64,000 nucleotides of DNA from Escherichia coli (GTDB lineage: Bacteria; Pseudomonadota; Gammaproteobacteria; Enterobacterales; Enterobacteriaceae), in assembly GCF_044324785.1 (NCBI RefSeq), contig NZ_CP172127.1. One strand, given 5' to 3'. Shown here piece after piece: positions 482 to 33,089 of the stretch. A program made the translations under genes and the position numbers. Positions within the stretch are counted from its first letter, which is position 1, and every line of letters begins with the position of its first letter. The notes under the pieces are model-generated. The model saw only the letters and a list, made by a program, of their open reading frames with translations. It ran no database searches and was not told where the DNA came from.

Positions 482-696
482 CTTCTTTTCCTCTCGAATG
501 TAAGATGGTAATTAACTTTACTACTTAAATTTAAATGTGAAAGATGTTTTTGTTATTTTATGGTTAACCCATTGTTTTATATGCTTTTAATTTGATATTT
601 AGATCATTTTTTAGCTTTAAGGATCTGTGTCACATAAATTTAATGTTTAGTATGTAAATTTAATAATCATCTTTTTAACCGATGGAAGAGAGACTC

Positions 697-3460: not shown

Positions 3461-3478
3461 CCTTTTACAGGAGATAAT

Positions 3479-4558: not shown

Positions 4559-4653
4559 GCTTCATTTCGCGCACAGCCATCCCCCTGAAATCTGGCTGAC
4601 TGTTATTTCGCAACAGTTATTGAGTAAATCTTTAACCTGTTAACAGAGGGTTT

Positions 4654-5178
4654 ATGAAACGTAAACTTATTGCCTTTGTGATTCTGGCTACATCATCCTG
4701 TGGATATGCAGCCACCAAAGATGTAACAATGAATCTTGTTGATAGTGACGGAAAAGAGCGAAATATTGGTAAAATAACCATCCAGAAGACACCCTACGGG
4801 CTGCTGTTCACCCCTGATCTTCACTCCTTACCCGCCGGCATTCATGGTTTTCATGTACATGAAAACGCAAGTTGTGCTCCTGCCCTGAAAGATGGAAAAA
4901 CTGTCGCTGCTTTATCTGCAGGTGGTCACTTTGACCCGGAAAAAACAGGGAAGCATCTCGGTCCATGGTCTCCTGATGGCCACCTGGGTGATCTCCCTGC
5001 GCTTTATGTCACTCATGACGGAAAAGCAACCTACCCGGTGCTTGCGCCAAGACTATCTGAATTAAAGGAGCTCGATGGCCGTTCGCTAATGCTCCACGCA
5101 GGAGGTGATAATCATGATGACCATCCTGAACCTCTAGGTGGCGGTGGTGCAAGAATTGCCTGTGGTATCATCCCATAA
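4654..5178 (+). CDS. sodC: Periplasmic Cu/Zn superoxide dismutase, accessory SodC paralogue
   Basis: Signal peptide plus Cu/Zn-SOD motifs [49 protein letters not shown]; clearly diverged from the chromosomal K-12 SodC as recalled. Confidence 0.85.
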
Positions 5179-5185
5179 TCAATCA

Positions 5186-5208
5186 GGTAAGGGATATCCT
5201 CCCTTACC
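5186..5208 (+). terminator. Hairpin downstream of sodC (possible intrinsic terminator)
   Basis: GGTAAGGGA-tatcc-TCCCTTACC perfect 9-bp stem just after the sodC stop; weak U-tract. Confidence 0.35.
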
Positions 5209-5306
5209 CTTAATCTTCCCTGGCTGCATGTGCATATCTTTCAGTTACTGTGAGATACCTGTATTACGGTGTCTTTTTAGCTCACAGAAATATCAGACAG
5301 CCCGTT

Positions 5307-5531
5307 TCAGTGTTTTATTACCTTAATCTTTTTACGGCATTCTTCAGCTCTTGCGCATGCTATTTTTTCACCTGTTTCATAACATTGCTGGCAGCCTAAT
5401 CCAAATTTCATCGCCATATCATAACCTTCCCGAAAACCTCGGAACCACGCGTTACGAAGGTATTCATCATATTCCCCGCAGTCAATAATAACCATTTTAT
5501 TTTCATGGGATTTTCCGGTATTCTCACTCAT
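5307..5531 (-). CDS. Hypothetical small cysteine-rich protein (about 74 aa from MSENTGKSHENK)
   Basis: ORF only; internal Met chosen as start; no recognisable family. Confidence 0.25.
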   Translation of the reverse strand: MSENTGKSHENKMVIIDCGEYDEYLRNAWFRGFREGYDMAMKFGLGCQQCYETGEKIACARAEECRKKIKVIKH

Positions 5532-6360
5532 TTTCGATACCTCAATGCTTACAACAGAAAAGTATACTTTTACGAAGTTCGCCTTTGCAGGACTATATAA
5601 AGTTATCACTGGATGCAAGAGCCGGAAATCCTGTATATCAGGATCAACTTTGTAATTCAATAACATATTATCCAGTGAAAAAGTAAGTATATTTAAGCTG
5701 GGGAAGGAGAAGGGGGACTTGATTTGATATTTTCATCAATAATATTATTTTTCCTCCTCCATTATTCATTCAGACCTGGTTCCGGGCGTAATTCCGATTT
5801 CTCTGTTGAAGCGATGCATTTATATTTAAATATTCACCTGTCATTGAATTTTATTTGAAATAGGAGAAAATCTCCTCCTGTACTACAGATAACCCGGAAT
5901 GTTCCTCGAAAGAAAATTCTGGCGCAGAATTCACGCCCGGTTCTGTTCAACATCATGCAGGATAACGATACCGAAACGTTAAACTCTGGCAATTCTCGTG
6001 TTATACACAGGCAGGAGTGATTACTACGGTAAGAATTGCTGAAAAGGGGAGAACACTGAAGGCCTTATTCGCGAAGAATAAAGGAGACATTTCATGTAAA
6101 TTATTATCAGAGATAACCTTCTCCAGGCGCTTTTGTTCGCTTCCTGAATTGCTACCTGATACATATTTACGGGATGCCAGCCTGGTGACTATAACTCCGA
6201 AAAGACCGATTATTGTATTGCGTGCATCCGGCATGTTTACAATGTACGCTGGTATCTAACGGAGTCTGACACAGATGCACGCAGGTGTATATTTTAACGT
6301 AATTATCCGGAAAGAACAGTATATTTTAATGCGGGAGTTGCATGAGCGGTGGATTTGCCC

Positions 6361-7266
6361 CTATATTTCCAGACACCTGTTATCACTTAACCCATTACTG
6401 GCCTGCTGCCGCAGATATTCCCGTGGCGAGCGATAACCCAGTGCACTATGCGGATGCCATTCGTTATAATGCTCGAACGCCTCTGCAAGGTTCTTTGCTG
6501 CCGTTAACCCGTCTGGTTTAGGCATGATACTGATGTAGTCACGCTTTATCGTTTTCACGAAGCTCTCTGCTATGCCGTTACTCTCCGGACTCCGCACCGC
6601 CGTGTTCTTCGGTTCAAGCCCCAACATCCGGGCAAACTGCCGTGTTTCATTAGCCCGGTAGCATGAACCATTATCCGTCAGCCACTCTACTGGAGACGCC
6701 GGAAGCTCGTTGCCGAAGCGGCGTTCCACCGCTCCCAGCATTACGTCCTGTACTGTTTCACTGTCGAAGCCGCCCGTAGTGACTGCCCAGTGCAGTGCCT
6801 CACGGTCACAGCAGTCCAGCGCGAACGTGACTCGCAGTTTTTCTCCGTTATCACAGCGGAACTCGAACCCGTCAGAGCACCATCGTTGATTGCTTTCTTT
6901 CACGGCCACTTTGCCAGTATGTGCCCGTTTCGATGGCGGTACAGCGGTTTTTCGCTCAAGCAACAGCGCATTCTGGCGCATGATCCGGTAAACACGTTTG
7001 GCATTGATCGCAGGCATACCATCAAGTTCGGCCTGTCTGCGAAGCAGCGCCCATACCCGACGATAACCATACGTGGGCAGCTCTCCGATAACATGGTGTA
7101 TACGGAGAAGCACATCCGTATCATCTGAGTGACGGCTGCGGCGACCATCTTTCCAGTCATCGGTTCGTCTGAGAATTACGTGCAACTGCGCACGCGACAC
7201 CCGGAGACAACGGCTGACTAAGCTTACTCCCCATCCCCGGGCAATAAGGGCGCGTGCGCTATCCAC
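6361..7266 (-). CDS. insD: IS2 transposase OrfB (InsD), DDE domain
   Basis: 301-aa ORF matching IS2 InsD; overlaps insC in the -1 frame, typical of IS3-family elements. Confidence 0.9.
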
Positions 7267-7589
7267 TTTTTTGCACGCCCGTATTCAACGGCTTCTTTAA
7301 GGAGTTCATTTTCCATCGTTTTTTTGCCGAGCAGGCGCTGGAGTTCTTTAATCTGCTTCATGGCAGCAGCAAGTTCAGAGGCAGGAACGACCTGCTCTCC
7401 TGCGGCCACAGCAGTAAGACTTCCCTCCTGGTATTGCTTGCGCCAGAGAAATAACTGGCTGGCTGCCACACCGTGTTGCCGGGCAACAAGGGAGACCGTC
7501 ATTCCCGGTTCAAAACTCTGCTGAACAATAGCGATCTTTTCCTGTGTAGTACGCCGTCTGCGTTTCTCCGGTCCTAAGACATCAATCAT
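7224..7589 (-). CDS. insC: IS2 transposase OrfA (InsC)
   Basis: [56 protein letters not shown]... matches IS2 InsC. Confidence 0.9.
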
Positions 7590-7681
7590 CTGCTCTCCAA
7601 TGACTAGTCTAAAAACTAGTATTAAGACTATCACTTATTTAAGTGATATTGGTTGTCTGGAGATTCAGGGGGCCAGTCTAA

Positions 7682-8499
<818 letters not shown>

Positions 8500-8745
8500 T
8501 AATTACACTGTGGGTTGACGCCGGAAGAATCAGAGAACAGATACCGTTCTTACTGTAAAACGTGGCTAATATTAATTGAGCACTGCAGTGTTCAGAGCAC
8601 AAAGAAGAAAAAAGATGTGTGCGAATGCCTGTAATGTGTTAAAAGAATGTTCCGCGTTTCCGGTACGCTTTTCGTAACTAACAATGCAGGGTGACGTAAC
8701 GCTGGTTGTGCCGGAAACGCGTCCCTCCCCCTATCTTTCCTGTTT

Positions 8746-8765
8746 GGATTTGCCCCTATATTTCT
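8746..8765 (+). repeat. Solo IS2 terminal-repeat fragment
   Basis: TGGATTTGCCCCTATATTTC is identical to the first 20 nt of the IS2 end at 6350; the sequence diverges afterwards. Confidence 0.5.
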
Positions 8766-9108
8766 GGATTATCCGACAAAACCGGCGTGAAGTATTACTC
8801 TCGTCGCCCAGCACCATAAGGATAACGCCCATAAAATCATGAAACTTTTCTTCCAGATTGGATACAATCAGGCCGAAACGGTGATGAATATTATCCAAAT
8901 CTGATGGTTCGTAGCGTTTTCAGCCCCCAGATTCTGAGTTGCCTGTAGGGATGATTTCAATTCCCGATTTGTCTATCGCATAGAGAAAAAGAATTTCATT
9001 TCTGTTCACCAGAACCCATGTAACCCACTCCAATTCGTTATTTATCTCACTGATTGCCCTTCATTTATCTCATTGATGCACCGAAAGGTAAAACTGCCAT
9101 CCGGTGCA

Positions 9109-10038
9109 TCACGCTCGATGCATCAAATCCTGATAAATCCCCGTCAGTATTCCTTGTAAGCTAAATTCTCTTTTTATCCACTGAGTGACTTGACCGCTTG
9201 CCGAATGCCTGGTTGCCAACAGCATTCGTGAATCCTGACGTGGGTTGCGGATCTGCCGTGTCACCAGCAATGACTTTTCCATCGCTTCACGCACCATATA
9301 GTCTGGCAGAAAACCGATTCCCTCCCCCAGGATCTGGCACTGAAGCTTAGTATTAAAGTCGGGAACCAGAATCGACTCTTGCCCGTGTAACAGCCAGCCG
9401 ACTTTTTTGTTTATAGTGTTTGCAGTGTCTTCCACCATGATGTTCGGGTACAGACGTAACTGACTCTCAGAAATGGGCTCAGGAATAAACGCCAGCGGAT
9501 GAGCCGGAGAAATCGCGAACAACCAACGAATCATGCCGATTTCAATGTAATCAATTCCACCACCGTCCAGTAACGTATCGGGCGCGCCAATGGCGATATC
9601 AGCCTGGTTATTAATGAGTGAATCCCAGACGCCATTATACACCTCTGTAGTAATAGCTATCTGGCAGGTTGGAAAGTGTTCCCTGAGCACTTGCAGAAGC
9701 CGAGCTGTATGCTGAGGGGTATACAACAGTTGATTAATACAAATGCGCACCCGGGATTTAATTCCCTGAGCGATGGCATCAACTCTACGTATGATGGAGT
9801 GGTAATCGTTGAGCAGGTCAGTTGCTTTGCAAAAAAGGTAGTGCCCGGGCTCGGTCAGCTCAATGCTACGGGTAGTTCGGGTAAAAAGCACCACGTCAAG
9901 CCCCATTTCCATACGCTTGATAGTGTAACTAATTGCCGATGTGGTTAAGCCCAGTTCCTTCGCCGCCTTGCTGAAACTTCTATAGCGGGCAGCCATAGTA
10001 AATGCCAGTAAGTTTTCTTCCGTAAATATTGAATTCAT
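9109..10038 (-). CDS. LysR-family transcriptional regulator (YahB-like), divergent from the downstream cluster
   Basis: N-terminal HTH MNSIFTEENLLAFTMAARYRSFSKAAKELGLTTSAISYTIKRME; start set at the Met that gives a LysR-type N-terminus (ORF track extends to 10167). Confidence 0.8.
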   Translation of the reverse strand: MNSIFTEENLLAFTMAARYRSFSKAAKELGLTTSAISYTIKRMEMGLDVVLFTRTTRSIELTEPGHYLFCKATDLLNDYHSIIRRVDAIAQGIKSRVRICINQLLYTPQHTARLLQVLREHFPTCQIAITTEVYNGVWDSLINNQADIAIGAPDTLLDGGGIDYIEIGMIRWLFAISPAHPLAFIPEPISESQLRLYPNIMVEDTANTINKKVGWLLHGQESILVPDFNTKLQCQILGEGIGFLPDYMVREAMEKSLLVTRQIRNPRQDSRMLLATRHSASGQVTQWIKREFSLQGILTGIYQDLMHRA

Positions 10039-10424
10039 CTTTCTTTCCTCTGGCGACAATACACATACACAACATGATGATTGTTGAATGTATTTGTAAT
10101 TCTTATAACCGGCAATCAGTTTTGAAAAAATTAACACCGTATTTACATTTAATTTGAAGGAAATCACACATCTGAATTTTAATTACAGGCAGCTATCCGT
10201 GCTGCAGACCACCTTTATTTATATGACTGCGGATTAATGGCTAAAATATCCCAGCTATAATAGAAATATTGCACTATATCACACTCTCTTATTATTGTTA
10301 ATTTTGTTTCAATAATTCATGGTCTAATGATGAGTAAATTTTAAATGGATGGTGCTCTATGCATTCTGTTGCTATTCTTGGCTTGTTATATTTGTAAAAT
10401 CTTAAAAAGAGCAGGAGATCGATT

Positions 10425-11030
10425 ATGTCCAATAAAGAACTCATTACAGAATTTCTGCTGGCGGCAGAACAAGGTAATGCCGATGGATTAAAATCATGCC
10501 TTGATAAAAAGGTTGATATTAATGCGACTAACCGCGAGGGGCGTACTGCAATTATTATTGCCAGTCTGAATAAACATTATGACTGCGTTTCTTTATTGAT
10601 TTCCGCAGGTGCTGATATTAATAAACAAGATCAAACTTGTTTTAATCCCTTCCTGATTGGCTGCCTGAATAATGATTTAACACTGTTGCGTACGGTATTA
10701 CCGGCTAACCCCGACCTTAATTGCCTAACCCGTTTTGGCGGTGTTGGTATTACACCTGCCTGCGAAAAAGGCCATGTCGAGATTGTACGTGAATTGCTGA
10801 TGCGTACTGATATCAATGTCAACCATACTAATTTTGTTGGCTGGACGCCGCTCCTAGAGGCCATCGTGCTGAATGACGGCGGTGAAAAGCAGCAGGAGAT
10901 CGTCAAACTGTTGCTTGAGCATGGCGCAAACCCGCACATGACGGATAAATACGGTAAAACCCCGCTGGAGCTGGCGCGAGAAAAAGGCTACCACAAAATT
11001 GCCGAGTTGCTGATTTCGGCTGGAGCCTGA
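10425..11030 (+). CDS. Ankyrin-repeat protein (YahD-like)
   Basis: Repeated ANK-type motifs (GRTAIIIASLNKHYDCVSLLISAGADIN; GWTPLLEAIVLN...LLLEHGANPH; GKTPLELAREKGYHKIAELLISAGA). Confidence 0.8.
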   Translation: MSNKELITEFLLAAEQGNADGLKSCLDKKVDINATNREGRTAIIIASLNKHYDCVSLLISAGADINKQDQTCFNPFLIGCLNNDLTLLRTVLPANPDLNCLTRFGGVGITPACEKGHVEIVRELLMRTDINVNHTNFVGWTPLLEAIVLNDGGEKQQEIVKLLLEHGANPHMTDKYGKTPLELAREKGYHKIAELLISAGA

Positions 11031-11115
11031 CAACAGGAGCACGATTATCGCTATATTATCACGGCAATCTTTTCGGGCACTAACCGCAGACTGCGCGTTT
11101 CTCACTTTTCGGGGA

Positions 11116-11964
11116 ATGGGCCAGGTTGAACAGGTTTTTTCCCATGCGGTAAATCTGTTAATACCTGAACAGCAGCGACTGCTGACGTTACTGAGTGAGG
11201 ATTGTGATAACGCACCTAACAGTTGTCGTTTAGCACTGACACATTATGAAGACCTTTTTCACCCCGGTGAACAGGTCAATTTTAGCGGGTCTGGAATAAC
11301 TGTTGGAAATGATAAATGGATAGAAATAACCGGTTGTCAGATGTGGCGAATACCACGGTGGACATCTGATTCAGCAAGCCTTGCCAAAGTCGGCTGGCAG
11401 CATTGGGAAGAGTTTATCCGCCAACAACTAAGAAGCAACGACACATTATTTCTGTACCAGGGTGACAATCCATTTTATCAGGAAATTTCTCGCCAATTAC
11501 TCAACCGCCGAAAAAATTTGCTGAAGGCGTTGTGTACAGGAGAAAACATCACTGCGGCAGTCAACCAGTTAATTGGTCTTGGAATAGGGCTGACGCCATC
11601 ATCGGATGATTATTTAGTAGGTTTAAGCACTATTTTATTTATTCAAGGACATCCACTAAGGAAGTATAGATACGATTTCTTAGCAGCATTACAACTTGCA
11701 GGAAATAACATAACGCTTCTCAGCAAAATAACGTTAGAGGAAGCATTTAATCAGCGTTATCGGGAAAGAGTCGGACGGCTACTGAACCAATTTATTACTG
11801 AGCCACAACCCATTTCTACGCAATATGTTACTGACATAAAAAATATAGGCTCAAGTTCTGGATGCGACATGCTGTATGGCATGGCGGATGCCTGCGCCCT
11901 GAGCCACAGGTCCGGAGGTAATTATGTCAATCAGGATAGTTGTAAAAAAAAACACGTATTTTGA
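11116..11964 (+). CDS. Conserved hypothetical protein (YahE-like, DUF2877-type)
   Basis: 282-aa ORF; position between the ankyrin and FdrA-like genes mirrors the K-12 yahD-yahE-yahF order as recalled. Confidence 0.55.
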   Translation: MGQVEQVFSHAVNLLIPEQQRLLTLLSEDCDNAPNSCRLALTHYEDLFHPGEQVNFSGSGITVGNDKWIEITGCQMWRIPRWTSDSASLAKVGWQHWEEFIRQQLRSNDTLFLYQGDNPFYQEISRQLLNRRKNLLKALCTGENITAAVNQLIGLGIGLTPSSDDYLVGLSTILFIQGHPLRKYRYDFLAALQLAGNNITLLSKITLEEAFNQRYRERVGRLLNQFITEPQPISTQYVTDIKNIGSSSGCDMLYGMADACALSHRSGGNYVNQDSCKKKHVF

Positions 11965-13471
11965 TTCTGTTTCACTGATGTCTATCTCCACGCGCGCAAA
12001 TAAGCTTGATGGAGTTGAGCAGGCATTTGTTGCTATGGCGACAGAGATGAATAAGGGGGTGCTGAAGAATCTCGGTCTGCTGACCCCTGAGCTGGAAGAG
12101 GCGAAAAGTGGCGATCTGATGATTGTCATTAAAGGTACCAGCGAGGAGGCGAACGAGCGGACGCTAATAGCGATTGATGAGCTGTTTGCGCATAAAGAAC
12201 AGGGAGGCCAGCACGAAGCACGCTATGCCACGATTGCCAGTGCGAAGAAGCATGCTCCAGAGAGTAATCTGGCGGTGATCTCTGTCAATGGCCTGTTTGC
12301 TGCTCGTGAAGCTCGTCAGGCACTACAAAATAACCTCAATGTTATGCTGTTTTCTGACAACGTCTCTCTTGAGGACGAGCTGGAACTCAAGCATCTGGCA
12401 CATGAAAAAGGGTTGTTGATGATGGGGCCTGATTGTGGAACCGCCATCATTAACGGCGCAGCGTTGTGTTTTGGCAATGCAGTGCGTCGCGGCAACATCG
12501 GAATCATTGGTGCCTCCGGTACGGGTAGCCAGGAGCTGAGCGTACGCATTCACGAATTTGGCGGCGGGATTTCCCAGCTGATTGGGACAGGTGGACGCGA
12601 TATGAGTGAAAAAATTGGCGGCCTGATGATGCTTGACGCGATTAGCATGCTGGAGGCCGATCCACAAACTGAGATCATTACGCTTATATCCAAACCTCCT
12701 GCACCAGCGGTAGCCCGTAAGGTGCTGGAACGTGCGCGCACCTGTCACAAGCCTGTGGTGGTGTGTTTCCTCGGACGTGAGTCCACCCCTGCGGATGAAG
12801 AAGGCCTACAGTTTGCCCGCGGTACTAAAGAGGCTGCCTTGAAAGCGGTACTGTTGACTGGTGTGAAAAAAGAGAGTCTGGATTTGCATCCGCTCAACTG
12901 GCAGCTGATTGAAGAGGTTCGCTCCCGTCTGACTCCACAACAAAAGTATATCCGTGGCCTGTTCTGTGGTGGCACGTTATGCGATGAAGCGATGTTTACT
13001 GCCATGGAAAAACTCTCGGATGTGTATAGCAATATTCACCCGAATCCGGCGTTCCGCCTTACAGATCTCAACCGTAGCGTGGCGCATACCTTCCTCGATT
13101 TCGGCGATGATTATTTTACCAACGGCAAACCACATCCGATGATCGATCCCACCAATCGCATTACCCGGCTCTTGCAGGAAGCACAGGATCCTGAAGTTGG
13201 CGTGATCGTGATGGACTTCATTCTTGGATTTGGATCACATGAAGATCCGGTTGGAGTGATGCTGGATACAATTGTTGAAGCCAAAGAAATTGCTGCCGCA
13301 GACGGTCGCCCGCTTGAGATCCTCGGCTATGTGCTGGGAACCGACCTTGATACACCGTCGCTGAAAAAACAGTGTCAGATGTTGACCGATGCCGGGGTTA
13401 TTTGGGCAAGCAGTAGCACCAACACCGGATTACTGGCACGTGAATTTATATTTAAAGGGGAGGAAGGCTGA
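11924..13471 (+). CDS. FdrA/YahF-like protein (CoA-binding, succinyl-CoA synthetase alpha-like fold)
   Basis: N-terminus MSIRIVVKKNTYFDSVSLMSIS resembles the FdrA family; 515 aa; glycine-rich loops GASGTGSQE. Confidence 0.75.
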   Translation: MSIRIVVKKNTYFDSVSLMSISTRANKLDGVEQAFVAMATEMNKGVLKNLGLLTPELEEAKSGDLMIVIKGTSEEANERTLIAIDELFAHKEQGGQHEARYATIASAKKHAPESNLAVISVNGLFAAREARQALQNNLNVMLFSDNVSLEDELELKHLAHEKGLLMMGPDCGTAIINGAALCFGNAVRRGNIGIIGASGTGSQELSVRIHEFGGGISQLIGTGGRDMSEKIGGLMMLDAISMLEADPQTEIITLISKPPAPAVARKVLERARTCHKPVVVCFLGRESTPADEEGLQFARGTKEAALKAVLLTGVKKESLDLHPLNWQLIEEVRSRLTPQQKYIRGLFCGGTLCDEAMFTAMEKLSDVYSNIHPNPAFRLTDLNRSVAHTFLDFGDDYFTNGKPHPMIDPTNRITRLLQEAQDPEVGVIVMDFILGFGSHEDPVGVMLDTIVEAKEIAAADGRPLEILGYVLGTDLDTPSLKKQCQMLTDAGVIWASSSTNTGLLAREFIFKGEEG

Positions 13472-14889
13472 TGAGCCAGACACTGTTTAATCAGCCGCTG
13501 AACGTTATTAATGTCGGTATCGAAATGTTCAGCGATGACATGAAAAAGCAGAATGTACCGGTAACCCAACTTGACTGGACACCGCCAGGCCAAGGAAACA
13601 TACAAGTGGTAACGGCACTGGACGACATTGCCGCTTCACCACTGGCAGACAAAATTGCAGCTGCTAATCAGCTGGCGCTGGAACGCATTATCCAGTCGCA
13701 TCCTGTGCTAATTGGCTATGATCAGGCGATCAACGTCGTGCCGGGTATGACCCGTAACACTATCCTTCACGCCGGGCCGCCAATCCACTGGGAAAAAATG
13801 TGCGGCGCAATGAAGGGCGCAGTAACCGGGGCTCTGGTATTTGAAGGACTGGCGAAAGATCTGGATGATGCCGCCGAACTAGCTGCTTCAGGTGAAATCA
13901 TCTTCTCTCCGTGCCACGAACATGACTGTGTCGGCTCAATGGCGGGTGTCACGTCTGCATCGATGTTTATGCACATCGTCGAGAACAAAACCTATGGAAA
14001 CCGCGCATATACCAATATGAGCGAGCAGATGGCAAAGATCCTGCGTATGGGCGCTAACGACCAGAGCGTTATAGAGCGTCTTAACTGGATGCGAGATGTA
14101 CTGGGACCTATGTTGCGCGATGCTATGAAGCTGGCGGGCGAAATCGATCTGCACTTGATGTTAGCGCAGGCGCTGCATATGGGCGATGAGTGCCATAACC
14201 GCAACAACGCCGGGACGGCGCTGCTGATTCAGACGCTGACGCCGTGGATTATTCAGACTGGCTACCCTGTTGAGCAGCAGCGTGAGGTGTTCGAGTTTGT
14301 CCTCAGTAGTGATTACTTCTCAGGACCAACATGGATGGCAATGTGTAAAGCCGCAATGGACGCTGCGCACGGCATTGAATACAGCACCGTGGTGACAACG
14401 ATGGCACGCAATGGTGTTGAGTTCGGTCTTCGTATTAGCGGTTTGCCGGGCAAGTGGTTTACCGGTCCGGCGCAGCAGGTGATTGGGCCGATGTTTGCGG
14501 GCTATAAGCTAGAGGATTCCGGACGTGATATCGGTGATAGTGCAATTACCGAAACCTACGGCGTTGGCGGTTTCGCTATGGCGACGGCACCAGCTATTGT
14601 GTCACTGGTGGGCGGAACAGTTGAGGAAGCTATTGATTTCTCACGTAAAATGAGAGAAATCACTCTCGGAGAAAACCCCAACGTCACCATTCCCCTGCTT
14701 GGTTTTATGGGCGTACCGACCGCTATCGATATTACGCGTGTAGGCAGTACAGGCATTCTGCCGGTAATTAACACAGCCATTGCGCACAAAGACGCAGGGA
14801 TCGGCATGATCGGCGCAGGAATTGTTCACCCGCCGTTCACTTGTTTTGAAAAGGCGATCCTCAACTGGCGTGACCACTACTGCCAATAA
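13471..14889 (+). CDS. DUF1116-type protein (YahG/YlbE-like)
   Basis: 472-aa ORF whose ATG overlaps the FdrA-like stop (ATGA); family assignment from operon context and recalled similarity. Confidence 0.65.
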   Translation: MSQTLFNQPLNVINVGIEMFSDDMKKQNVPVTQLDWTPPGQGNIQVVTALDDIAASPLADKIAAANQLALERIIQSHPVLIGYDQAINVVPGMTRNTILHAGPPIHWEKMCGAMKGAVTGALVFEGLAKDLDDAAELAASGEIIFSPCHEHDCVGSMAGVTSASMFMHIVENKTYGNRAYTNMSEQMAKILRMGANDQSVIERLNWMRDVLGPMLRDAMKLAGEIDLHLMLAQALHMGDECHNRNNAGTALLIQTLTPWIIQTGYPVEQQREVFEFVLSSDYFSGPTWMAMCKAAMDAAHGIEYSTVVTTMARNGVEFGLRISGLPGKWFTGPAQQVIGPMFAGYKLEDSGRDIGDSAITETYGVGGFAMATAPAIVSLVGGTVEEAIDFSRKMREITLGENPNVTIPLLGFMGVPTAIDITRVGSTGILPVINTAIAHKDAGIGMIGAGIVHPPFTCFEKAILNWRDHYCQ

Positions 14890-15001
14890 CAATAACCGGG
14901 GCTAACGCAGTTAGCCCCACAGTAGCGGAAAACGTTGTTTACCTTCAGGGCTGGGCGATCTCCATGATCGCAAACGATGCTTAACCTGTTAAGGAGATTC
15001 C

Positions 15002-16552
15002 ATGAACAGCATAAAACTAGAATGGAAACGTGGTGACTGGGCGGCTTACTTTGGACTGATGACCAACAATCTGACTAACCTGCTGACAATGATGGGTCTG
15101 CTAATTTTTGTCGTCGGAATCCCTACTGAAATTGTCTATGGACGCATTGCGCCTGCCTTTGGTCTTGCAGTGCTGGCGGCCAGTGTCTGCTACTCCTGGT
15201 TTGGTCTACAGATGGTGAAGAAAACCGGTCGTAGCGATGTAACGGCGCTGCCGTCTGGACCGAGCGCACCCTCAATCTTTACCGTGACATTCCTGGTGCT
15301 GATGCCGGTTTATCAGCAAACCAAAGATGCCAACTTTGCTATTCAGATAGGATTGGTGTGGTGCTTTGTCGAAGCGTTGATCCTGGTCGGTGGCTCCTTC
15401 CTGGGTGAGACTATCCGCAAGATGATCCCGCGTACAGTGCTGCTTTCTTGTCTGTCCGGACTGGGGTTATTACTGCTGGCAATGAACCCGATGCTGCAAG
15501 CGTTCGAAGCGCCGACAGTTTCTTTCATCGTCCTGTTATTGATCTTCATTAACTGGTTCGGTAAGAAGCCGATTTTTCCCCATATTCCTACCGGTTTGCT
15601 GTTGCTGATTGCTGGTACGTCCCTAGCGTGGATATCCGGTTTACAAAGCCCGGAAGACATTAAAGCGTCGATGTCTTCCTTCGGCTTCAACCCGCCGGAA
15701 ATTCATGTAAGGAGCTTCCTGCAAGGTTTGCCGCACGCTCTGCCATATCTGGCTTCTGCAGTTCCTTTGGGCCTGGCTAACTACATTTTTGACCTCGAGA
15801 ACATTGAAAGTGCGCACGCGGCTGGTGATGAATACAACACCCGTAAGGTCATGATGGCGAACGGCTTTGCCTCCATGCTCGGTTGCATGCTGGGTAATCC
15901 GTTCCCGGTAACCGTATATGTTGGGCATGCAGGCTGGAAAGCTATGGGCGCTAGTATCTGCTATACCCTCGCATCAGGCATCACTATGTTTCTGGTGCCA
16001 TTGTTTGGGTTGGGCGCGTTTATGCTCGCCATTATTCCCATGACTGCTATAGTGCCAATTCTGGTTTTTATCGGTGTGGTAACCGCCAATCAGGTGGTGC
16101 GAGAAACTCCTAAAGTCGAGGTTCCCGTCATTTTCATCTGTCTGTTCCCATGGGTCGCCAACTGGGCATTGACCATCGTTAACAGCGTGATGGGCGCAGC
16201 CGGAACATCCGCTGAGAAACTTGGTAGCGACCTGTTGCACAGCAAAGGCGTCTATTACGATGGACTGATGCATCTGGGAAGCGGTGCACCGCTGGCCAGC
16301 ATGCTGTGGGGATGCATTGCTATCTTTGCCATTATGAATAAGCCGCTGCGCGGGGCGATAGCTGCATCCTTTGGAGCACTGTTATCGCTGTTTGGCGTGA
16401 TTCACTCCCCAGCGGTTGGCTTTGCGGAAGGCAGCTCGATTGTGTTTGTTGTGGCCTACCTGATGATGCTTGCTATGTTTGCCCTCAAGCATGTTATTGA
16501 TAGCCGTGAAACAGTGGCTGCGTCTGAGCAGGAAGAGACTAAAACGACCTGA
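15002..16552 (+). CDS. Polytopic membrane transporter (putative nucleobase/ureide-type permease), not part of the K-12 yah cluster
   Basis: 516 aa, at least 10 hydrophobic segments; RBS AAGGAGA before the ATG; family unresolved without a search. Confidence 0.65.
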   Translation: MNSIKLEWKRGDWAAYFGLMTNNLTNLLTMMGLLIFVVGIPTEIVYGRIAPAFGLAVLAASVCYSWFGLQMVKKTGRSDVTALPSGPSAPSIFTVTFLVLMPVYQQTKDANFAIQIGLVWCFVEALILVGGSFLGETIRKMIPRTVLLSCLSGLGLLLLAMNPMLQAFEAPTVSFIVLLLIFINWFGKKPIFPHIPTGLLLLIAGTSLAWISGLQSPEDIKASMSSFGFNPPEIHVRSFLQGLPHALPYLASAVPLGLANYIFDLENIESAHAAGDEYNTRKVMMANGFASMLGCMLGNPFPVTVYVGHAGWKAMGASICYTLASGITMFLVPLFGLGAFMLAIIPMTAIVPILVFIGVVTANQVVRETPKVEVPVIFICLFPWVANWALTIVNSVMGAAGTSAEKLGSDLLHSKGVYYDGLMHLGSGAPLASMLWGCIAIFAIMNKPLRGAIAASFGALLSLFGVIHSPAVGFAEGSSIVFVVAYLMMLAMFALKHVIDSRETVAASEQEETKTT

Positions 16553-16578
16553 ATAGCCTGCAAACGGAAGATAATTCT

Positions 16579-17541
16579 ATGAAAGAACTTGTGGTCGTTG
16601 CCATTGGTGGCAACAGCATTATCAAAGATAACGCCAGCCAGTCGATTGAGCATCAGGCGGAGGCGGTGAAGGCCGTCGCCGATACGGTTCTGGAAATGCT
16701 GGCTTCCGATTACGACATTGTGCTGACCCACGGCAACGGGCCGCAGGTCGGTCTGGATTTACGCCGCGCGGAGATAGCCCACGAGCGCGAAGGGCTACCC
16801 TTAACGCCGCTGGCGAACTGTGTGGCGGATACGCAAGGCGGCATTGGCTATCTGATCCAGCAGGCGCTGAACAACCGGCTGGCGCCTCTCGGCGAGAAAA
16901 AAGCCGTCACCGTGGTGACTCAGGTGGAAGTGGATAAAAACGATCCGGGGTTTGTCCATCCCACCAAGCCCATCGGTGCATTCTTTAGTGAAAACCAGCG
17001 TGATGAACTACAAAAGGCAAACCCTGACTGGCGTTTTGTTGAAGATGCCGGACGGGGCTATCGCCGCGTGGTCGCCTCGCCGGAACCGAAACGTATTGTC
17101 GAAGCACCTGCCATTAAGACTCTGATCCAGCAAGGCTTTGTGGTGATTGGCGCGGGCGGCGGTGGCATTCCGGTGGTGCGTACTGACGCAGGGGATTACC
17201 AAAGCGTGGACGCGGTTATCGACAAAGATCTCTCTAGCGCGCTACTGGCTCGCGAAATTCACGCCGACATTCTGGTGATCACCACCGGCGTGGAAAAAGT
17301 GAGTATTCATTTTGGGAAACCCAACCAGCATGCACTGGATACAGTGGATGTCCTAACGATGGCCCGTTACATGCAGGAGGGTCACTTCCCGCCTGGGAGT
17401 ATGTTACCGAAGATTCTTGCCAGTCTGGAGTTCCTGGAACGTGGAGGTAAAAGAGTGATTATCACCACGCCTGAATGCCTGTCCGCGGCACTGCGTGGCG
17501 AAACAGGCACCCATATTATCCACTCCCAAGAGGAGACGTAA
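16579..17541 (+). CDS. Carbamate kinase-like protein (YahI/ArcC-like)
   Basis: MKELVVVAIGGNSI...VLTHGNGPQVG matches the carbamate kinase / amino-acid kinase family. Confidence 0.8.
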   Translation: MKELVVVAIGGNSIIKDNASQSIEHQAEAVKAVADTVLEMLASDYDIVLTHGNGPQVGLDLRRAEIAHEREGLPLTPLANCVADTQGGIGYLIQQALNNRLAPLGEKKAVTVVTQVEVDKNDPGFVHPTKPIGAFFSENQRDELQKANPDWRFVEDAGRGYRRVVASPEPKRIVEAPAIKTLIQQGFVVIGAGGGGIPVVRTDAGDYQSVDAVIDKDLSSALLAREIHADILVITTGVEKVSIHFGKPNQHALDTVDVLTMARYMQEGHFPPGSMLPKILASLEFLERGGKRVIITTPECLSAALRGETGTHIIHSQEET

Positions 17542-18639
17542 ATTAAGGAAAGCGACCGCCGCCGTGAATTTTTAATGTTCATTGCAGATTATCGTGGGCT
17601 GGAAATGATAACGGTTGGGGAGTTATTGTTTAGTTGCTAAAACAGAACGATAACCAACCCCAACCGTTCTCAATTTCGAATACTATCTTTTCCATTTATC
17701 TCTGGATAGGCTTTGACGTCGTCCCTACTGAGTAAAATCCCCCTCATCATCCACCTAAAACCGATTGAAAACGGTCATTACTCTTGTGGCAAACAGGCTA
17801 AAGCCGTTCACGATGCTTCACTTCGCACCTTATCGTAATGAACAATACTGGTATTTCCAGTTCAGTTACGCCTACCCGTCTACCGCATTCTTTGCCCTAA
17901 CTGCGGCATAGTTCGGGATTATATCAGCTGGCTAAAGCCTTATGCTCATCAGACCACATGACTCATTGAGCATGTTGAGGCGTTACTCAAAATCTTGCCG
18001 ATTAAACATATTTCGTAATTTCTTACCCTGCACTAACATATCATCAATACTATCGACAAACGTCAGTTGCAAATAGAGGTCACAGGGTCTGATTGATGTA
18101 CTGTCAAGGCCGGGTCATGAAAGAGTTTGCCCTGTTCAAAGCTCATCGTTACGCACCGTCGTAGCCGATGCGGATACTCATCAATCCTCTGGATAGGTGA
18201 GGTGCGTAGTAGAGAAGCTCGGTCGTTTTTCGTTAATCTGAATCAGTACTGTCAACATATTCAAGTCGTTAATATGGATATGAATACCTCCTTTGACCTA
18301 GAGGTACAGATGCACTACCCCCCAAGCTGTCAACGACGGATGAAAAGTGGCTCTTCCGCAACCTGGATGGAGATTTTCATGCCAGTGGACTCATGACCCT
18401 CTGCCTGAGTAGTTCAAATCCGGCTCGACCATACATCTGGCCTTTCAGCATTTTTAGCCAATTTACATGACTTTCGACCACCCCCCATTATTCCAGCGAC
18501 TGCTGATTGCCTCACATATAGCCGCAGCATCAGCTACCATCCTTGCAGCCACGCGCCGAAGTTACCACTTTCTCGTTGCTCTTTTAACCACTCCCTCCAT
18601 GGGTCCAGAAGTCCTCGCTCTGGAGGCCGGGTTGACATT

Positions 18640-19539
18640 TCAGGGAATGTTCCTGAACACACCCAGAGACTGACTGTCACACGTGATAAGCCTGTAATAC
18701 GGGATAAGCCTGTAATACGGGATAAGCCTGTAATACGGGATATTTCCCCTGAACCCACATCCCTTGTTATGTAGTGCCATAACCTCTGTCCAACGCTGAT
18801 GCCGTTTTTGGCGGGTTTGCTGTTTAAGGCGTTCCGGACGACGGAGCGATGCTACAGGCACAGACAGTACTGGCTTAGGTGATTTCTTTGGTGACAACCC
18901 ACTGGCAACAAGACGTATCAGAGGCATCTGTCTGTACATCATTCGTTCAGGCGCATCGCCAATATTTTTTAGCAGGTGCCATCGATCAGCTATCTGTCTG
19001 GCCTGAGGTGCACCTTCACGTGCTGCTGTCGCATAGACTCCGCCACGGTCACGTGAGACAACCTGTATTTCCGGATATTTTCTGAACCAGGTCGCCAGCG
19101 TACTCTGATCGCAACCGGGAAGCAGGACGAGGGGACGGTGAGTATCAAGATTGACAATTAACGTGCCGTAATGGTGGCCCCGATGCCACGCCCACTCATC
19201 AATACCGACATGAGGCGCGCCCGACTGTTTCGTCTCCGGGGTATTAATAACCCTGCGAAGAAGAGTATCAGCACTGCAACGGAGCCCCACTGCCGTTGCT
19301 GCCTGTTTCCCGGCCTCACCTCCGGCTATTAATCCCAGTTGATGTTGTAAATTTTGTAACACCTGTGAAGAATGCTGGGAGTGAACCGGCGAAGGGGGCA
19401 AGCGACCCGGCAAAAATTTTACGTGAACAAGCCGGGTTACGGCAGTACCAGTGGCGGACGGAAAATACAAGCCATAGCGTCTGCCCTGAGCAGGGTAGAT
19501 GCTGTATCCGGCGCCGACGATAACTATGAACAGAGTCAC
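18640..19539 (-). pseudogene. ISL3-family transposase fragment, 5'-truncated at the IS1 insertion, with repeat-containing C-terminus
   Basis: ...HVGIDEWAWHRGHHYGTLIVNLDTHRPLVLLPGCDQSTLATWFRKYPEIQVVSRDRGGVYATAAREGAPQARQIADRWHLLKNIGDA resembles the ISL3 transposase core; the N-terminal part is missing. Confidence 0.55.
18685..18738 (+). repeat. 18-bp perfect tandem repeat x3 (GATAAGCCTGTAATACGG)
   Basis: Three identical 18-bp units, read in the minus-strand ORF as (IPYYRL)x3. Confidence 0.9.
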
Positions 19540-19716
19540 TACGCTTAAAGCATTCAGGACTTGTGCTGTTTTGCGTTTTCCGTGGAGATGGAGGGTTATA
19601 CCGTCAGAGCTAATAATTTGTCGACTGCATCTCCATCCGCAAGGTAACTGTAGAAGTGTCTGGTGATGCTGCCAACTTACTGATTTAGTGTATGATGGTG
19701 TTTTTGAGGTGCTCCA

Positions 19717-19992
19717 GTGGCTTCTGTTTCTATCAGCTGTCCCTCCTGTTCAGCTACTGACGGGGTGGTGCGTAACGGCAAAAGCACCGCCGGACATCAG
19801 CGCTATCTCTGCTCTCACTGCCGTAAAACATGGCAACTGCAGTTCACTTACACCGCTTCTCAACCCGGTACGCACCAGAAAATCATTGATATGGCCATGA
19901 ATGGCGTTGGATGCCGGGCAACTGCCCGCATTATGGGCGTTGGCCTCAACACGATTTTACGTCACTTAAAAAACTCAGGCCGCAGTCGGTAA
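19717..19992 (+). CDS. insA: IS1 InsA
   Basis: [43 protein letters not shown]... matches IS1 InsA. Confidence 0.9.
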
Positions 19993-20414
19993 CCTCGCGC
20001 ATACAGCCGGGCAGTGACGTCATCGTCTGCGCGGAAATGGACGAACAGTGGGGCTATGTCGGGGCTAAATCGCGCCAGCGCTGGCTGTTTTACGCGTATG
20101 ACAGTCTCCGGAAGACGGTTGTTGCGCACGTATTCGGTGAACGCACTATGGCGACGCTGGGGCGTCTTATGAGCCTGCTGTCACCCTTTGACGTGGTGAT
20201 ATGGATGACGGATGGCTGGCCGCTGTATGAATCCCGCCTGAAGGGAAAGCTGCACGTAATCAGCAAGCGATATACGCAGCGAATTGAGCGGCATAACCTG
20301 AATCTGAGGCAGCACCTGGCACGGCTGGGACGGAAGTCGCTGTCGTTTTCAAAATCGGTGGAGCTGCATGACAAAGTCATCAGGCATTATCTGAACATAA
20401 AACACTATCAATAA
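19911..20414 (+). CDS. insB: IS1 InsB frame (expressed as InsAB' by -1 frameshifting)
   Basis: ORF carrying the IS1 InsB sequence ...[47 protein letters not shown]...; coordinates are the open frame, not a defined start. Confidence 0.8.
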
Positions 20415-20578: not shown

Positions 20579-20848
20579 AGAAAAGGCATTTACACAGAAT
20601 CCTAAACAGGCTCATTCAGACAGCTTTTTATTTCACTATGGCTATCCCAGAACAATCAGTACAAATAATAAAAGACATATCACAGCAACACTCCACACTG
20701 ACAGCGCAAAAATAAATGCCGCCTTTGTTATCTTCATATACAAGCAACCTGTCCTGATAATCACCAGCTCATGTTTTATTCTTAACCATTCGTCACAAAT
20801 ACAACAAAAAATAACAGCAGCAGCACCGATATCACAATATAAGATACA

Positions 20849-21304
20849 TTATTCAACACCTGAATCCCCCGCCGCTTCTCTCCCCTTTATAAAACGCCCC
20901 TTCCGGAATCCAGACCGCTGCAGTGCACGACGAAGATGACCGTATACCGTCTTGTCATTCTGCCCCGTCTCTTCTGTAATCTCCGCAATACTTAAACCTC
21001 TGTAATACCGGTTCAGTAACGCTCTGCGCTCTTCCAGCGTCAACACACCTCCGGCCGCTCTCAGATTCAGCATCGACTTATTCAGAATACAGCAGGCCTC
21101 TCCGGTAAAAAGAATACGAACAATATCTGTATACTCATCATCACAGAATACAAAATAATATCTGAATGACCTGCCTGACTGCACCCTTCTTCTGTCTGAT
21201 ATGGCATCTTCTATATATCTGATTCGACTGCTTACGGTTCCAAATACCTCTCGCAGGGCTTTTTCAAAATAAATATCTCTCGTCGCCAGGATTATATCCA
21301 GCAT
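20849..21304 (-). CDS. Putative HTH transcriptional regulator (LuxR/sigma-70 region-4-like C-terminus)
   Basis: C-terminal LTLEERRALLNRYYRGLSIAEITEETGQNDKTVYGHLRRALQR resembles a GerE/region-4 HTH; lies immediately upstream of the adhesin gene on the same strand. Confidence 0.5.
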   Translation of the reverse strand: MLDIILATRDIYFEKALREVFGTVSSRIRYIEDAISDRRRVQSGRSFRYYFVFCDDEYTDIVRILFTGEACCILNKSMLNLRAAGGVLTLEERRALLNRYYRGLSIAEITEETGQNDKTVYGHLRRALQRSGFRKGRFIKGREAAGDSGVE

Positions 21305-21365
21305 CTCTGTACCTCATTATATCCCGGGGGACTCCCCCCGGGACAGATATCTAAATCCTGACCTG

Positions 21366-22631
21366 TCAGAACTCAAAATTCACACCAGCATTCCACGATG
21401 CGGATGACCCACCTGCAGCAACTGCAACTTTTCCTGCCACATTCTCTGTGAAACGGTAGCCCACGCCCACCGCAATGGCCTGCTCATCACGGTAACCACC
21501 AACGGCTGCTGTCGCGTTAAATTTTCCAACACTGTATGGCTGGAAAAGACCGGCCAGTGCCGCGCTCTGGGCTGCACTCTCCCTTAACTCCTTCCGGTTC
21601 TCTTTAATCTGCTCCTGCATATTATTCATTCTCTCTGTCGCCATCTTCTGCCAGGCTTCCGTCAAATCCAGACGATGACTGTTATTCCTTATCGCTGCTG
21701 TATTTGAGGCTATTGCTGCATCCGTCTGCGCCCTGTTCTTCACAAGCACATCGCTGAGATGTTCTGCCTGGCTTTTCGCTTCTTTACGGGCATCCCGTAC
21801 ACTTTTATCTGTATAAGCCCGGGAAACCTGAACTGTTTCATCCGCTTTTTCTTTTATTTCATCCTGAAGAGCAAGAGAAGATGCATCCGTATACGCCACC
21901 GCTGCCGATGTGCCTGCAATAATATCCCTGCTGAGTTCATCACGTACTGCTGTAACCTGACTGTCAGTATGAGCACGGGCATCTCTGTATACACCGCCTA
22001 TCTCACCGCGCAGGGCATCCCCCGACACCCGTACAGCATCTGCAATGGCGTTGTCCATCTGTCCTTTTGTGGCCGCATCACTATCCTTAACACCATCTGA
22101 AACATTTATAATCCGGCGGGTTTCCGGTGCTCCTTTGACACTCTCTCCATATCCCTCAGGCCCGGCACCAACAGATACCACGTTATTTTCTCCCGACACC
22201 TGTGAGCCATGGCCCAGAGCTACAGAACTGGTAGAATCCTGCACAGATGAAAACGCACCAATTGCCGAGCTCTGACGAGAAGAAATAAGTGACGCTTCTT
22301 TTCCTGCAACAGTCCCCCATTCAGAGTCAGCAATAAGTGCATCATGCCCCAGACTCACACTTCCCGGAGAGTTCACAACACCAGAATTATTCCCCAAAAG
22401 CACAGTCCTGTTTGAGTCTAATAAAAAAGAATCATCACCAATCAACCATACATTTCTTACTTTATCAATCGAACGGCCAGCTACTGATTCTCCAACAAGA
22501 AAGCTATTATCTTCGCCAGGTTCAATCGGTCCGATTAAAATATCCTGAGCCTGAGCCTGAGCCGAGAGCAGCAGGGCCACACTCACTGCCAGCGCGCTTT
22601 TCTTTAAAAAAGCATCACGTCTTTTAAGCAT
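21366..22631 (-). CDS. Trimeric autotransporter adhesin (YadA-like C-terminal anchor; Eib/Saa-like)
   Basis: Signal peptide [28 protein letters not shown]; repetitive head, long coiled-coil stalk; C-terminal anchor ...[35 protein letters not shown]; RBS AGGAGA before the ATG at 22631. Confidence 0.7.
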
Positions 22632-23118
22632 TCTGTTATTCTCCTGTATTATTACTTCACCAGCCAGAACGGTAGTGCGGAGCAAAAATACAGTGATAAG
22701 AATCCTCTTTTATTAATTTAATAATGCCAGGAATATTATTGTGTATAATATGCGCCCTCAATTTAAGCAGCAGAAAAGCAATGACGAGAAAATCATTAAA
22801 ATACATAAAGATAAAACATCATAACTATAATTATAATAAGCGCGCTTATTTTAGCATCTGAACATTTAAAGTACTGCTATCACAAAACAATAAAAATCCT
22901 GGGTAATATCTCTGATGATTGAATGAGAAATTCACGATGTCTGGTGAGAATTCTGTTCAAAACGAGGAATGCAGACATACATGTGGCAGGCATGGACTTC
23001 CACCGATTTAACTTTTTTCCTTCCTTGTATTTACACATCACACATTTTGCGCTACAAAAATTTCACGTGGCACGCACCACGTGATCCGTAGAAAAGCCTC
23101 TTGTTACGAATTTCGTAA

Positions 23119-23150
23119 ACCGCACGTCTGTCTGGTCGTGCGGATTTTTT
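23119..23150 (+). terminator. Orphan intrinsic-terminator-like hairpin with U-tract
   Basis: CCGCACG-tctgtctggt-CGTGCGG followed by ATTTTTTAT; no + strand CDS upstream. Confidence 0.4.
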
Positions 23151-23343
23151 ATCCGTCAACTTCACATGAAACCGCCAGATCACTGTTTCCGGATTCAGAC
23201 ATCAGGCATATTATCATCCACAATGTCGTGAACAAGATCACACTTTTGCAATTCCTTTATTGATCGAAAGCAGTTAATCACGGAAATTAATTACCGGAGT
23301 GAAAGCATTACTGCATCGTAAATATCTACCATTTTTGACTACA

Positions 23344-23373
23344 CCCTCTGACAGAATTTTCAGAGGGTTTTTT
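23344..23373 (+). terminator. Orphan intrinsic-terminator-like hairpin with U-tract
   Basis: CCCTCTGA-cagaattt-TCAGAGGG followed by TTTTTTAT. Confidence 0.45.
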
Positions 23374-25667: not shown

Positions 25668-25684
25668 CTGCACAACAGCGCTGT

Positions 25685-33044: not shown

Positions 33045-33089
33045 CATTGATTACGTCATTCAGTCTTAACCACTGATAAGGAGCAAAGT

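Follow-up and report, generated by a model that had tools for sequence, protein, structure and literature searches.

Gene content of the cassette

A window of 64,000 nucleotides (nt) of Escherichia coli DNA (contig NZ_CP172127.1) was analyzed, of which positions 9109-17541 harbour a cassette of seven intact, closely spaced open reading frames (ORFs). These encode a LysR-type regulator, an ankyrin-repeat protein, relatives of the AllH, AllF and AllG proteins (referred to below as H, F and G), a permease of 516 amino acids (aa) and a carbamate kinase (Table 1). Comparison at the protein and DNA level indicates that the cassette is a second, diverged version of the yah locus, neither the yah locus of E. 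coli K-12 in a new place nor a duplicate of the allantoin region. A preliminary description of this DNA had proposed a compact seven-gene unit with overlapping or tightly spaced frames, and both coordinates and spacing were confirmed. The H and F genes overlap over 41 nt, an ATGA is shared at the junction of F and G, and the remaining gaps measure 26-112 nt (112 nt between G and the permease gene, 26 nt between the permease and kinase genes). Ratios of nonsynonymous to synonymous substitution rates (dN/dS) relative to Citrobacter braakii lie between 0.03 and 0.21 across all seven genes, which indicates that they are real genes under purifying selection. H is the least conserved component, with the weakest constraint of the seven. 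Profile searches furthermore recovered the FdrA-like, DUF1116 and DUF2877 trio and the terminal carbamate kinase homologue that had been named in the preliminary description (Table 1). That description had overlooked an eighth gene, yahJ, encoding an amidohydrolase, which is severed after 11 codons.

Table 1 Features of the cassette and its mobile module. Positions are those of the window; identities are at the aa level; dN/dS is relative to C. braakii
Feature	Position	Strand	Basis	Identity to K-12 Yah protein	Identity to All protein	dN/dS
12.4-kb mobile module bounded by insertion sequences	7681-20070	.	99.7% identical over 12,391 nt to IncFIC plasmid NZ_CP019909.1			
LysR-type regulator, YahB-like	9109-10038	-	309 aa from PGAP/RefSeq start; longest ORF extends to 10167	YahB 84%	AllS 39%	0.086
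Divergent control region	10039-10424	.	Blocks conserved across genera			
Ankyrin-repeat protein, YahD-like, 201 aa, cytoplasmic	10425-11030	+	Ankyrin-repeat profile matches	YahD 72%		0.064
H, AllH-like (DUF2877) protein	11116-11964	+	Pfam PF11392 E 2e-22	YahE 53%	AllH, no BLAST match	0.21
F, AllF/FdrA-like subunit (HMA-like N-terminus, CoA-binding and CoA-ligase domains)	11924-13471	+	NCBIfam PRK06091 490 bits, cut-off 433	YahF 83%	AllF 38%	
G, AllG-like (DUF1116) subunit	13471-14889	+	Pfam PF06545 E 1e-89	YahG 90%	AllG 46%	
G+C-rich palindrome, 10-bp stem	14897-14919	.	Terminator scan; within the 112-nt gap between G and permease			
Permease, 516 aa, 14 helices	15002-16552	+	AlphaFold2 pLDDT 83.6			0.056
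Carbamate kinase, YahI-like	16579-17541	+	NCBIfam PRK12352 625 bits, cut-off 266	YahI 93%	AllK/YbcF 38%	
5' stump of yahJ	17542-17575	+	YahJ residues 1-11 align at 17542-17574			

The K-12 locus yahB-yahD-yahE-yahF-yahG-(yahH)-yahI-yahJ contains the same families in the same order. In K-12, however, repetitive extragenic palindromic (REP) elements (yahH) take the position of the permease gene, yahC lies beside yahB and yahJ is kept, whereas in the window copy the permease gene is present, yahC is missing and yahJ has been lost. The two copies share 52-93% identity at the aa level and ~79-89% at the nt level, and the cassette is thus a paralogue, as had been supposed, rather than a relocated K-12 copy. 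The cassette resembles Citrobacter more closely than the E. coli yah locus: an 8.5-kb block (window 9081-17575) is colinear with C. braakii at 85.5% nt identity. The yah genes of K-12, with their REP-filled yahH, were still uncharacterised in a 2024 survey of the y-ome (PMC11551758). A literature search found no assigned function for the yah genes and no description of the plasmid or island cassette.

Conservation of the Yah-type module

To survey the permease, one genome per species was scanned; homologues were found in 168 species, and 83 loci were examined. In every one of these loci with enough flanking DNA the permease gene is linked to genes for the ankyrin protein, F, G and the kinase. 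Clustering of neighbouring ORFs recovered the permease family in 80 of the 83 loci, F in 79, G in 77, the ankyrin family in 74, the kinase in 73, LysR in 70, YahJ in 69 and H in 55. The commonest layout is a divergent LysR gene followed by ankyrin, H, F, G, permease, kinase and yahJ genes, and the order in the window is that of at least 31 enterobacterial loci. Only these eight families are conserved. Any further family is common to at most 18 of the 83 loci, which argues that the Yah-type module is self-contained. In Firmicute versions (Brevibacillus, Neobacillus) a CDA-fold deaminase replaces or supplements YahJ; the Brevibacillus locus furthermore contains an allantoin-permease-like NCS1 carrier and a gene of the Asp/Glu (hydantoin) racemase family, and the Trichococcus locus adds RidA-like proteins.

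The permease

The permease has no match in Pfam, even at E ≤ 10, none in NCBIfam and none at the sequence level in the PDB, and the cassette defines a transporter family that Pfam and NCBIfam do not cover. The AlphaFold2 model shows 14 helices with short strands at residues 85-87 and 303-305. Foldseek assigned this model to the 7+7 inverted-repeat fold of UraA, UapA, SVCT1, AZG and SLC26 (probability 1.0, TM ~0.5, identity 11-18%), with SLC26 anion carriers and SVCT1 scoring equal to UraA, UapA and AZG. Profile alignment with hhalign gave a probability of 5.9% for GhxQ and 1% for XanQ, neither of them significant, with the aligned segments on the expected helices. The name 'xanthine permease' given in some records is unsupported by Pfam (PF00860 included), NCBIfam, PDB sequence search and hhalign; the fold alone is held in common.

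Homologues of the permease are 65-95% identical across enterobacteria, Beta- and Alphaproteobacteria and Firmicutes. They form essentially one cluster in a library of representatives at 50% identity, the next similarity being at most 38%. No representative of an Escherichia or Salmonella species occurs among the 80 best matches, all of which are at least 69% identical, while an Escherichia orthologue, if present, would be expected near the top of the list. Because of this absence and of the linkage in the surveyed loci, the permease is regarded as an ancestral component, which the chromosomal locus of Escherichia has lost. The preliminary description was right that the K-12 yah locus lacks the permease, the REP-filled yahH being found there, but the permease is not an addition to the operon. 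A remnant was looked for in the spacer between yahG and yahI of K-12 and was not found. As the K-12 operon is without the transporter of the module, K-12 may be the wrong organism for studying the yah genes. The palindrome preceding the permease gene (Table 1) may be an RNA processing site, an attenuation site or a REP-like element.

Relation of F, G and H to the AllFGH carbamoyltransferase

A characterised relative of the cassette is the AllFGH-AllK system of E. coli. The genes fdrA-ylbE-ylbF have been renamed allFGH, and ybcF is allK, encoding a catabolic carbamate kinase (PMC11326118; PMC9843812). Purified AllFGH was found to interconvert oxalurate plus phosphate and oxamate plus carbamoyl phosphate (PMC11326118). 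By this system oxalurate, which arises in allantoin breakdown, yields ATP and ammonia. The kinship with the fdrA-ylbE-ylbF region that the preliminary description had pointed to, as an oxamate carbamoyltransferase feeding a carbamate kinase, thus concerns a function that was shown experimentally in 2024 (PMC11326118; PMC9843812). The cassette carries the signatures of an AllFGH-type carbamoyltransferase in the broad sense: an AllF homologue with HMA_AllF_N, CoA_binding and Ligase_CoA domains, AllG (PF06545), AllH (PF11392) and an adjacent, co-oriented carbamate kinase. Both systems furthermore have an AllS-type LysR regulator, and the presumed logic is the same, a ureide and phosphate giving carbamoyl phosphate and this in turn ATP. 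However, the cassette proteins are only 38-46% identical to AllS, AllF, AllG and AllK. Similarity at the level of orthologues to oxamic transcarbamylase proper is not reached by F, G and H, which are 53-90% identical to YahE, YahF and YahG. The genes are ordered H-F-G in the cassette and F-G-H in the All system, and the cassette adds the ankyrin protein and a dedicated permease (in complete operons also YahJ). The All genes are located in the allantoin regulon downstream of allECD, whereas no all genes are present in or near the cassette, which is flanked by insertion sequences (IS).

The boundary between F and G is shifted by ~50 residues between the two systems. Window positions 13471-13620, encoding the N-terminal ~50 residues of G, are homologous to positions 18200-18348 of locus L009, encoding the C-terminal ~45 residues of AllF, and the summed length of F and G is nearly equal despite this shift (987 aa in the Yah type, 974 aa in the All type). 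The shifted boundary argues for an intimate complex of the two proteins. H is more variable. Apart from its resemblance to YahE it is 27% identical to its counterpart in Brevibacillus or Janthinobacterium, and an AllH-type gene is absent from ~24 otherwise intact operons. It is missing in the clade of Enterobacter, Leclercia, Lelliottia and Silvania and in Huaxiibacter, in which the ankyrin gene abuts F (H-less loci L023, L026-L029, L031-L033, L038-L040, L042-L046, L048, L050, L053 and L070). A tblastn search for H in four 20-kb loci (L023, L027, L028 and L045) did not find it. A deletion of allH was reported to be leaky, and allFG alone restore ~7% of oxamate formation (PMC11326118). The H-less operons fit these published observations.

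The three shared Pfam families, the carbamate kinase and a regulator that is closest to AllS could also mean that the cassette encodes a second oxamic transcarbamylase, an AllFGH-AllK isozyme equipped with an importer for external oxalurate (for instance from parabanate or oxidised urate) and without new chemistry. The permease fold would agree with this, since it includes the small-carboxylate carriers SLC26Dg (fumarate) and SiSulT, which was solved with oxalate bound. We consider this explanation unlikely. Identities of 38-46% to AllF, AllG and AllK, compared to 67-90% among Yah-type proteins from E. coli to Brevibacillus, indicate that All and Yah are two old, separate lineages. The ankyrin protein, the YahJ deaminase and the CDA-fold deaminase accompany Yah specifically and have no role in oxalurate cleavage. 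E. coli, and likewise Citrobacter freundii, carry All as well as Yah genes (PMC11326118). Furthermore, K-12 allF and allG deletion mutants form no oxamate despite the presence of yahEFG (PMC11326118), which suggests that Yah is not a simple duplicate of All under those conditions. Together with the deep split between the two lineages, this result argues, not conclusively, against oxalurate as the substrate.

It may also be asked whether F and G transfer carbamoyl groups in a catabolic direction at all. F retains CoA-binding and CoA-ligase domains; its PDB matches are 3DMY (FdrA; E 1e-83) followed by alpha chains of succinyl-CoA synthetase, and databases name it 'acyl-CoA synthetase FdrA'. F and G could therefore form an acyl-CoA or acyl-phosphate enzyme resembling succinyl-CoA synthetase. 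Alternatively the ureido compound could be a biosynthetic product, made with carbamoyl phosphate and exported by the permease, and it has been found that the AllFGH reaction is reversible and was assayed in the synthetic direction (PMC11326118). Several observations make either variant very improbable. In the published assay AllFGH works without CoA (PMC11326118), and the kinase of the cassette is a clear member of the carbamate kinase family. The deaminases that co-occur with the module and its PucR- and AllS-type regulators point to catabolism. The catalytic histidine of SucD, which is phosphorylated in succinyl-CoA synthetase, aligns to tyrosine in Yah-type and to phenylalanine in All-type proteins; a phosphohistidine mechanism for F was rejected on this basis, tentatively, the alignment spanning a large insertion. 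A resemblance of G to the beta chain of succinyl-CoA synthetase was likewise considered and rejected: its sole structural relative is the unannotated Enterococcus structure 3CLQ, with 64% identity.

The ankyrin protein and the regulator

The preliminary description had called the ankyrin protein unusual in enterobacterial metabolism. It is no peculiarity of the window copy: K-12 possesses yahD, and the F/G lineage is accompanied in Proteobacteria as well as Firmicutes by a protein of the ankyrin or ankyrin-TPR kind. The protein is a conserved core component of the operon, 86% identical to its Aeromonas and 63% to its Brevibacillus homologue. Fusions of ankyrin to TPR repeats occur in Bosea, Paenibacillus, Neobacillus and Trichococcus and form separate clusters from the ankyrin cluster counted above. 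Ankyrin-repeat proteins conserved within a bacterial metabolic operon are rare, and the present one is such a case. Proteins of ~393 aa encoded beside the Firmicute clusters were considered as a possible single family and rejected as such, their identities being mixed: the Neobacillus protein is an ankyrin-TPR protein, those of Trichococcus and Enterococcus are related membrane proteins, and that of Paenibacillus is an unrelated secreted protein.

The LysR gene is transcribed divergently from the operon. In NCBIfam its product scores highest against AllS (269 bits), followed by PunR (229 bits), each score lying under the cut-off of its model. AllS/PunR-like LysR proteins are the regulators of the enterobacterial versions, while the Firmicute and Bosea versions have a regulator of the PucR family. 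Alignment of 10 orthologous intergenic regions, that of Aeromonas included, revealed invariant blocks. In most orthologues one of these blocks contains an inverted repeat TGATT-N7-AATCA, which in the window reads TAATT-N7-AATCA (~10150-10166). The conserved blocks are put forward as candidate operator sites only. In scans for consensus promoters and terminators, matches were no more frequent than in shuffled sequence.

The carbamate kinase and the truncated yahJ gene

The kinase scores well above the cut-off of the carbamate kinase model PRK12352 (Table 1). Its score of 344 bits against the arcC equivalog model TIGR00746 lies below the cut-off of 358, so that it is regarded as a member of the carbamate kinase family and not as an ArcC equivalog. 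The synonymous distance (dS) of the kinase gene to chromosomal yahI is 0.41, compared to 1.4-3.3 for the ankyrin, H, F and G genes, and its dS to Citrobacter is 0.99. The low value for yahI suggests that the 3' end is mosaic or that the kinase gene underwent gene conversion with the yah locus of the chromosome.

Homology to C. braakii extends 34 nt beyond the end of the kinase gene and breaks off within the first 11 codons of yahJ, and the cassette is thus a fragment of a complete operon with its last gene cut. Beyond the 11-codon stump no YahJ-like sequence was found in the window, nor a yahC remnant. The nearest solved relatives of YahJ are AtzC (E 2e-43) and then cytosine deaminases (CodA), which places it among the amidohydrolases of the AtzC/cytosine-deaminase branch. 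Natural operons without yahJ are found in Aeromonas, Janthinobacterium, Pantoea sp. A4 and Providencia rustigianii. Its loss in the window as well as in several natural operons is easier to understand if YahJ performs an optional step.

Mobility and distribution in E. coli

As the preliminary description had stated, the cassette lies in horizontally acquired DNA. It is embedded in IS-rich sequence as part of a 12.4-kb mobile module (Table 1), bordered by an IS3-family fragment on the left and by an ISL3 pseudogene and an IS1 element on the right. Of 5426 complete E. coli genomes, 141 contain the permease gene of the cassette, in each case with at least 99% identity. It was located at 106 plasmid and 45 chromosomal sites, mostly on IncF plasmids. 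Among 40 evenly sampled records 18 were of poultry origin, including ColV-type plasmids of avian pathogenic E. coli. The native, permease-less yah locus occurs in ~94% of E. coli genomes, at ~82% nt identity. Conjugative IncF plasmids from poultry and extraintestinal E. coli frequently carry the cassette, which suggests that a metabolic trait adaptive in certain niches travels with virulence and resistance plasmids.

The same setting could indicate that E. coli carries the cassette passively, as a truncated fragment hitch-hiking on IS-rich plasmid and island DNA without benefit to this host. Indeed, yahJ is severed, and IS2, IS3, ISL3 and IS1 elements as well as pseudogenes surround the block. 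Identity among the 147 E. coli records is 99% or higher throughout, which points to recent spread, so that the low dN/dS values would reflect the history before transfer. However, none of the seven ORFs is disrupted, nor is the control region, the cassette is retained at no fewer than the plasmid and chromosomal sites counted above, and natural operons without yahJ exist in the four taxa already named. Mere carriage is regarded as quite improbable.

Proposed function

The explanation that we favour, and regard as fairly probable, is that the cassette is a horizontally acquired, IS-bounded, 3'-truncated operon of the Yah type which, by analogy with AllFGH-AllK, would import a ureide and convert it by phosphorolysis to carbamoyl phosphate and from there to ATP and ammonia; the ureide is probably derived from an N-heterocycle and is probably not oxalurate. 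The observations cover the genes present, their homologies, conservation and linkage, the selection acting on them and their distribution; the reaction, its direction, the substrate class and the role of the ankyrin protein are inferred as follows. The 14-helix permease would import a small N-carbamoyl (ureido) compound, whose ureido group would be cleaved with phosphate by the F/G enzyme to give carbamoyl phosphate and the de-carbamoylated amine. The AllH-like protein may aid F and G in this reaction, and the ankyrin protein probably organises them. Carbamate kinase would then convert carbamoyl phosphate and ADP to ATP, ammonia and CO2. The divergent AllS/PunR-like LysR protein is predicted to activate the operon when the substrate is present. 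In complete operons YahJ could act either on an amino or imino precursor, forming the ureide, or on the amine product by deamination. On most E. coli chromosomes the yah locus keeps yahJ and is without the permease gene, and the permease of the window and the chromosomal yahJ may complement each other in trans and so restore a complete pathway. The accessory deaminases and the PucR- and AllS-type regulators suggest that the substrate probably stems from a purine, a pyrimidine or another N-heterocycle. The kinship of YahJ with AtzC and cytosine deaminases and the NCS1 carrier and racemase-family gene of Brevibacillus speak for the same origin.

A number of points weigh against this explanation. 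The predicted reaction is drawn wholly from identities of 38-46% to AllF and AllG. No ring-opening hydrolase is encoded in the module, and a link to heterocycles needs either the import of a linear ureide or the chemistry predicted for YahJ; in the window copy yahJ is truncated. To judge from the structural model, the fold of the permease does not separate nucleobase carriers from anion carriers, and its motif-level resemblance to the AzgA-type carrier GhxQ is not significant. AllH is required for full activity of AllFGH, and the absence of H from ~24 operons indicates that subunit requirements differ from those of the AllFGH model. Finally, the failure of K-12 allF and allG mutants to form oxamate could equally mean that the yah genes are not expressed.

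Arginine and agmatine deiminase pathways consist of an antiporter, a deiminase, a catabolic ornithine or putrescine carbamoyltransferase and a carbamate kinase. Complete Yah-type operons would resemble these pathways in their combination of a transporter, a hydrolytic deaminase, phosphorolytic carbamoyl transfer and an ATP-yielding carbamate kinase. The components differ, however: the carbamoyltransferase is of the AllFGH type and unrelated to the fold of aspartate and ornithine transcarbamylases (ATCase/OTCase), the deaminase belongs to the AtzC/CodA branch of the amidohydrolases and the transporter has the UraA/SLC26 fold. A further likeness is found in the tkt1 island or 'GR29' cluster of extraintestinal pathogenic E. 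coli, which is also an accessory module of F, G, H and carbamate kinase with its own permease and LysR protein (PMC3349570; PMC12928451). This cluster lacks the ankyrin protein, has an NCS1 cytosine-permease-like carrier and an isochorismatase-family hydrolase instead of the 14-helix permease and YahJ, and its G protein is ~46% identical to YahG (PMC12928451). A second cluster of F, G and kinase genes was looked for in the window and none was found. The IncFIC plasmid NZ_CP019909.1 does carry, ~8 kb from its copy of the cassette (locus L010, positions 1-5135), a third FdrA/DUF1116/carbamate kinase cluster, of the tkt1/GR29 type, which includes a separate LysR regulator and an NCS1 'cytosine permease'. 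Three paralogous modules of F, G and kinase can thus be present in E. coli.

Taken further, the Yah-type module might be an unrecognised, self-contained, ATP-yielding pathway for a specific ureide of purine or other N-heterocycle origin, in which an ankyrin-scaffolded AllFGH-type carbamoyltransferase is combined with a new transporter family. The K-12 operon would then appear functionless in screens through loss of the transporter, and the copy on IncF plasmids and islands would restore the pathway, to the advantage of poultry and extraintestinal E. coli in the urate-rich bird gut or in urine. We put forward this combination as a speculative possibility that is rather doubtful as a whole. If the predicted chemistry is true, AllFGH would be the founder of a wider family of phosphorolytic, energy-conserving enzymes that cleave ureides with varied substrates. 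The yah genes are long-standing unknowns of E. coli. Citrobacter offers complete versions that are tractable, and E. coli plasmids offer versions with the permease. The cassette genes have already been annotated in many genomes; their chemistry is a prediction, and an old y-gene problem has now become experimentally approachable. The permease-bearing cassette is a good entry point for identifying what the yah genes feed on.

Genomic surroundings of the cassette

The window comprises a chromosomal island that adjoins cadCBA, at the pheU hotspot, and is similar, not identical, to the island of strain CFSAN061770. Positions 38100-64000 are core chromosome (cadC-cadB-cadA, dtpC, lysS, dcuSR, dcuB, fumB, melAR and adiA), and in the closest genome an integrase remnant precedes this part. 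The core cad genes and the integrase remnant place the island at the cadC/pheU integration hotspot. ARAGORN found no tRNA gene in the window. On the left, positions 1-6350 contain an ABC transporter operon (ATPase, two permeases and a binding protein), a glycerophosphodiester phosphodiesterase gene and sodC, which are found in the same accessory region of CFSAN061770. They are followed by a 1330-bp IS2-like element (6351-7680; orfA 7224-7634 and orfB 6361-7266, both on the minus strand), which is an insertion relative to the otherwise >99.9% identical CFSAN061770 island. The window thus derives from another strain, and the annotation of CFSAN061770 applies to it only in part. To the right of the mobile module, positions 20800-38000, annotated by similarity to strain CFSAN061770 (82-97% nt identity), harbour a YadA-like adhesin gene with a small gene for a sigma-like helix-turn-helix protein, and CP4-type cargo comprising an antirestriction protein, RadC, a YeeU/CbtA toxin-antitoxin pair and a DUF4942 protein.

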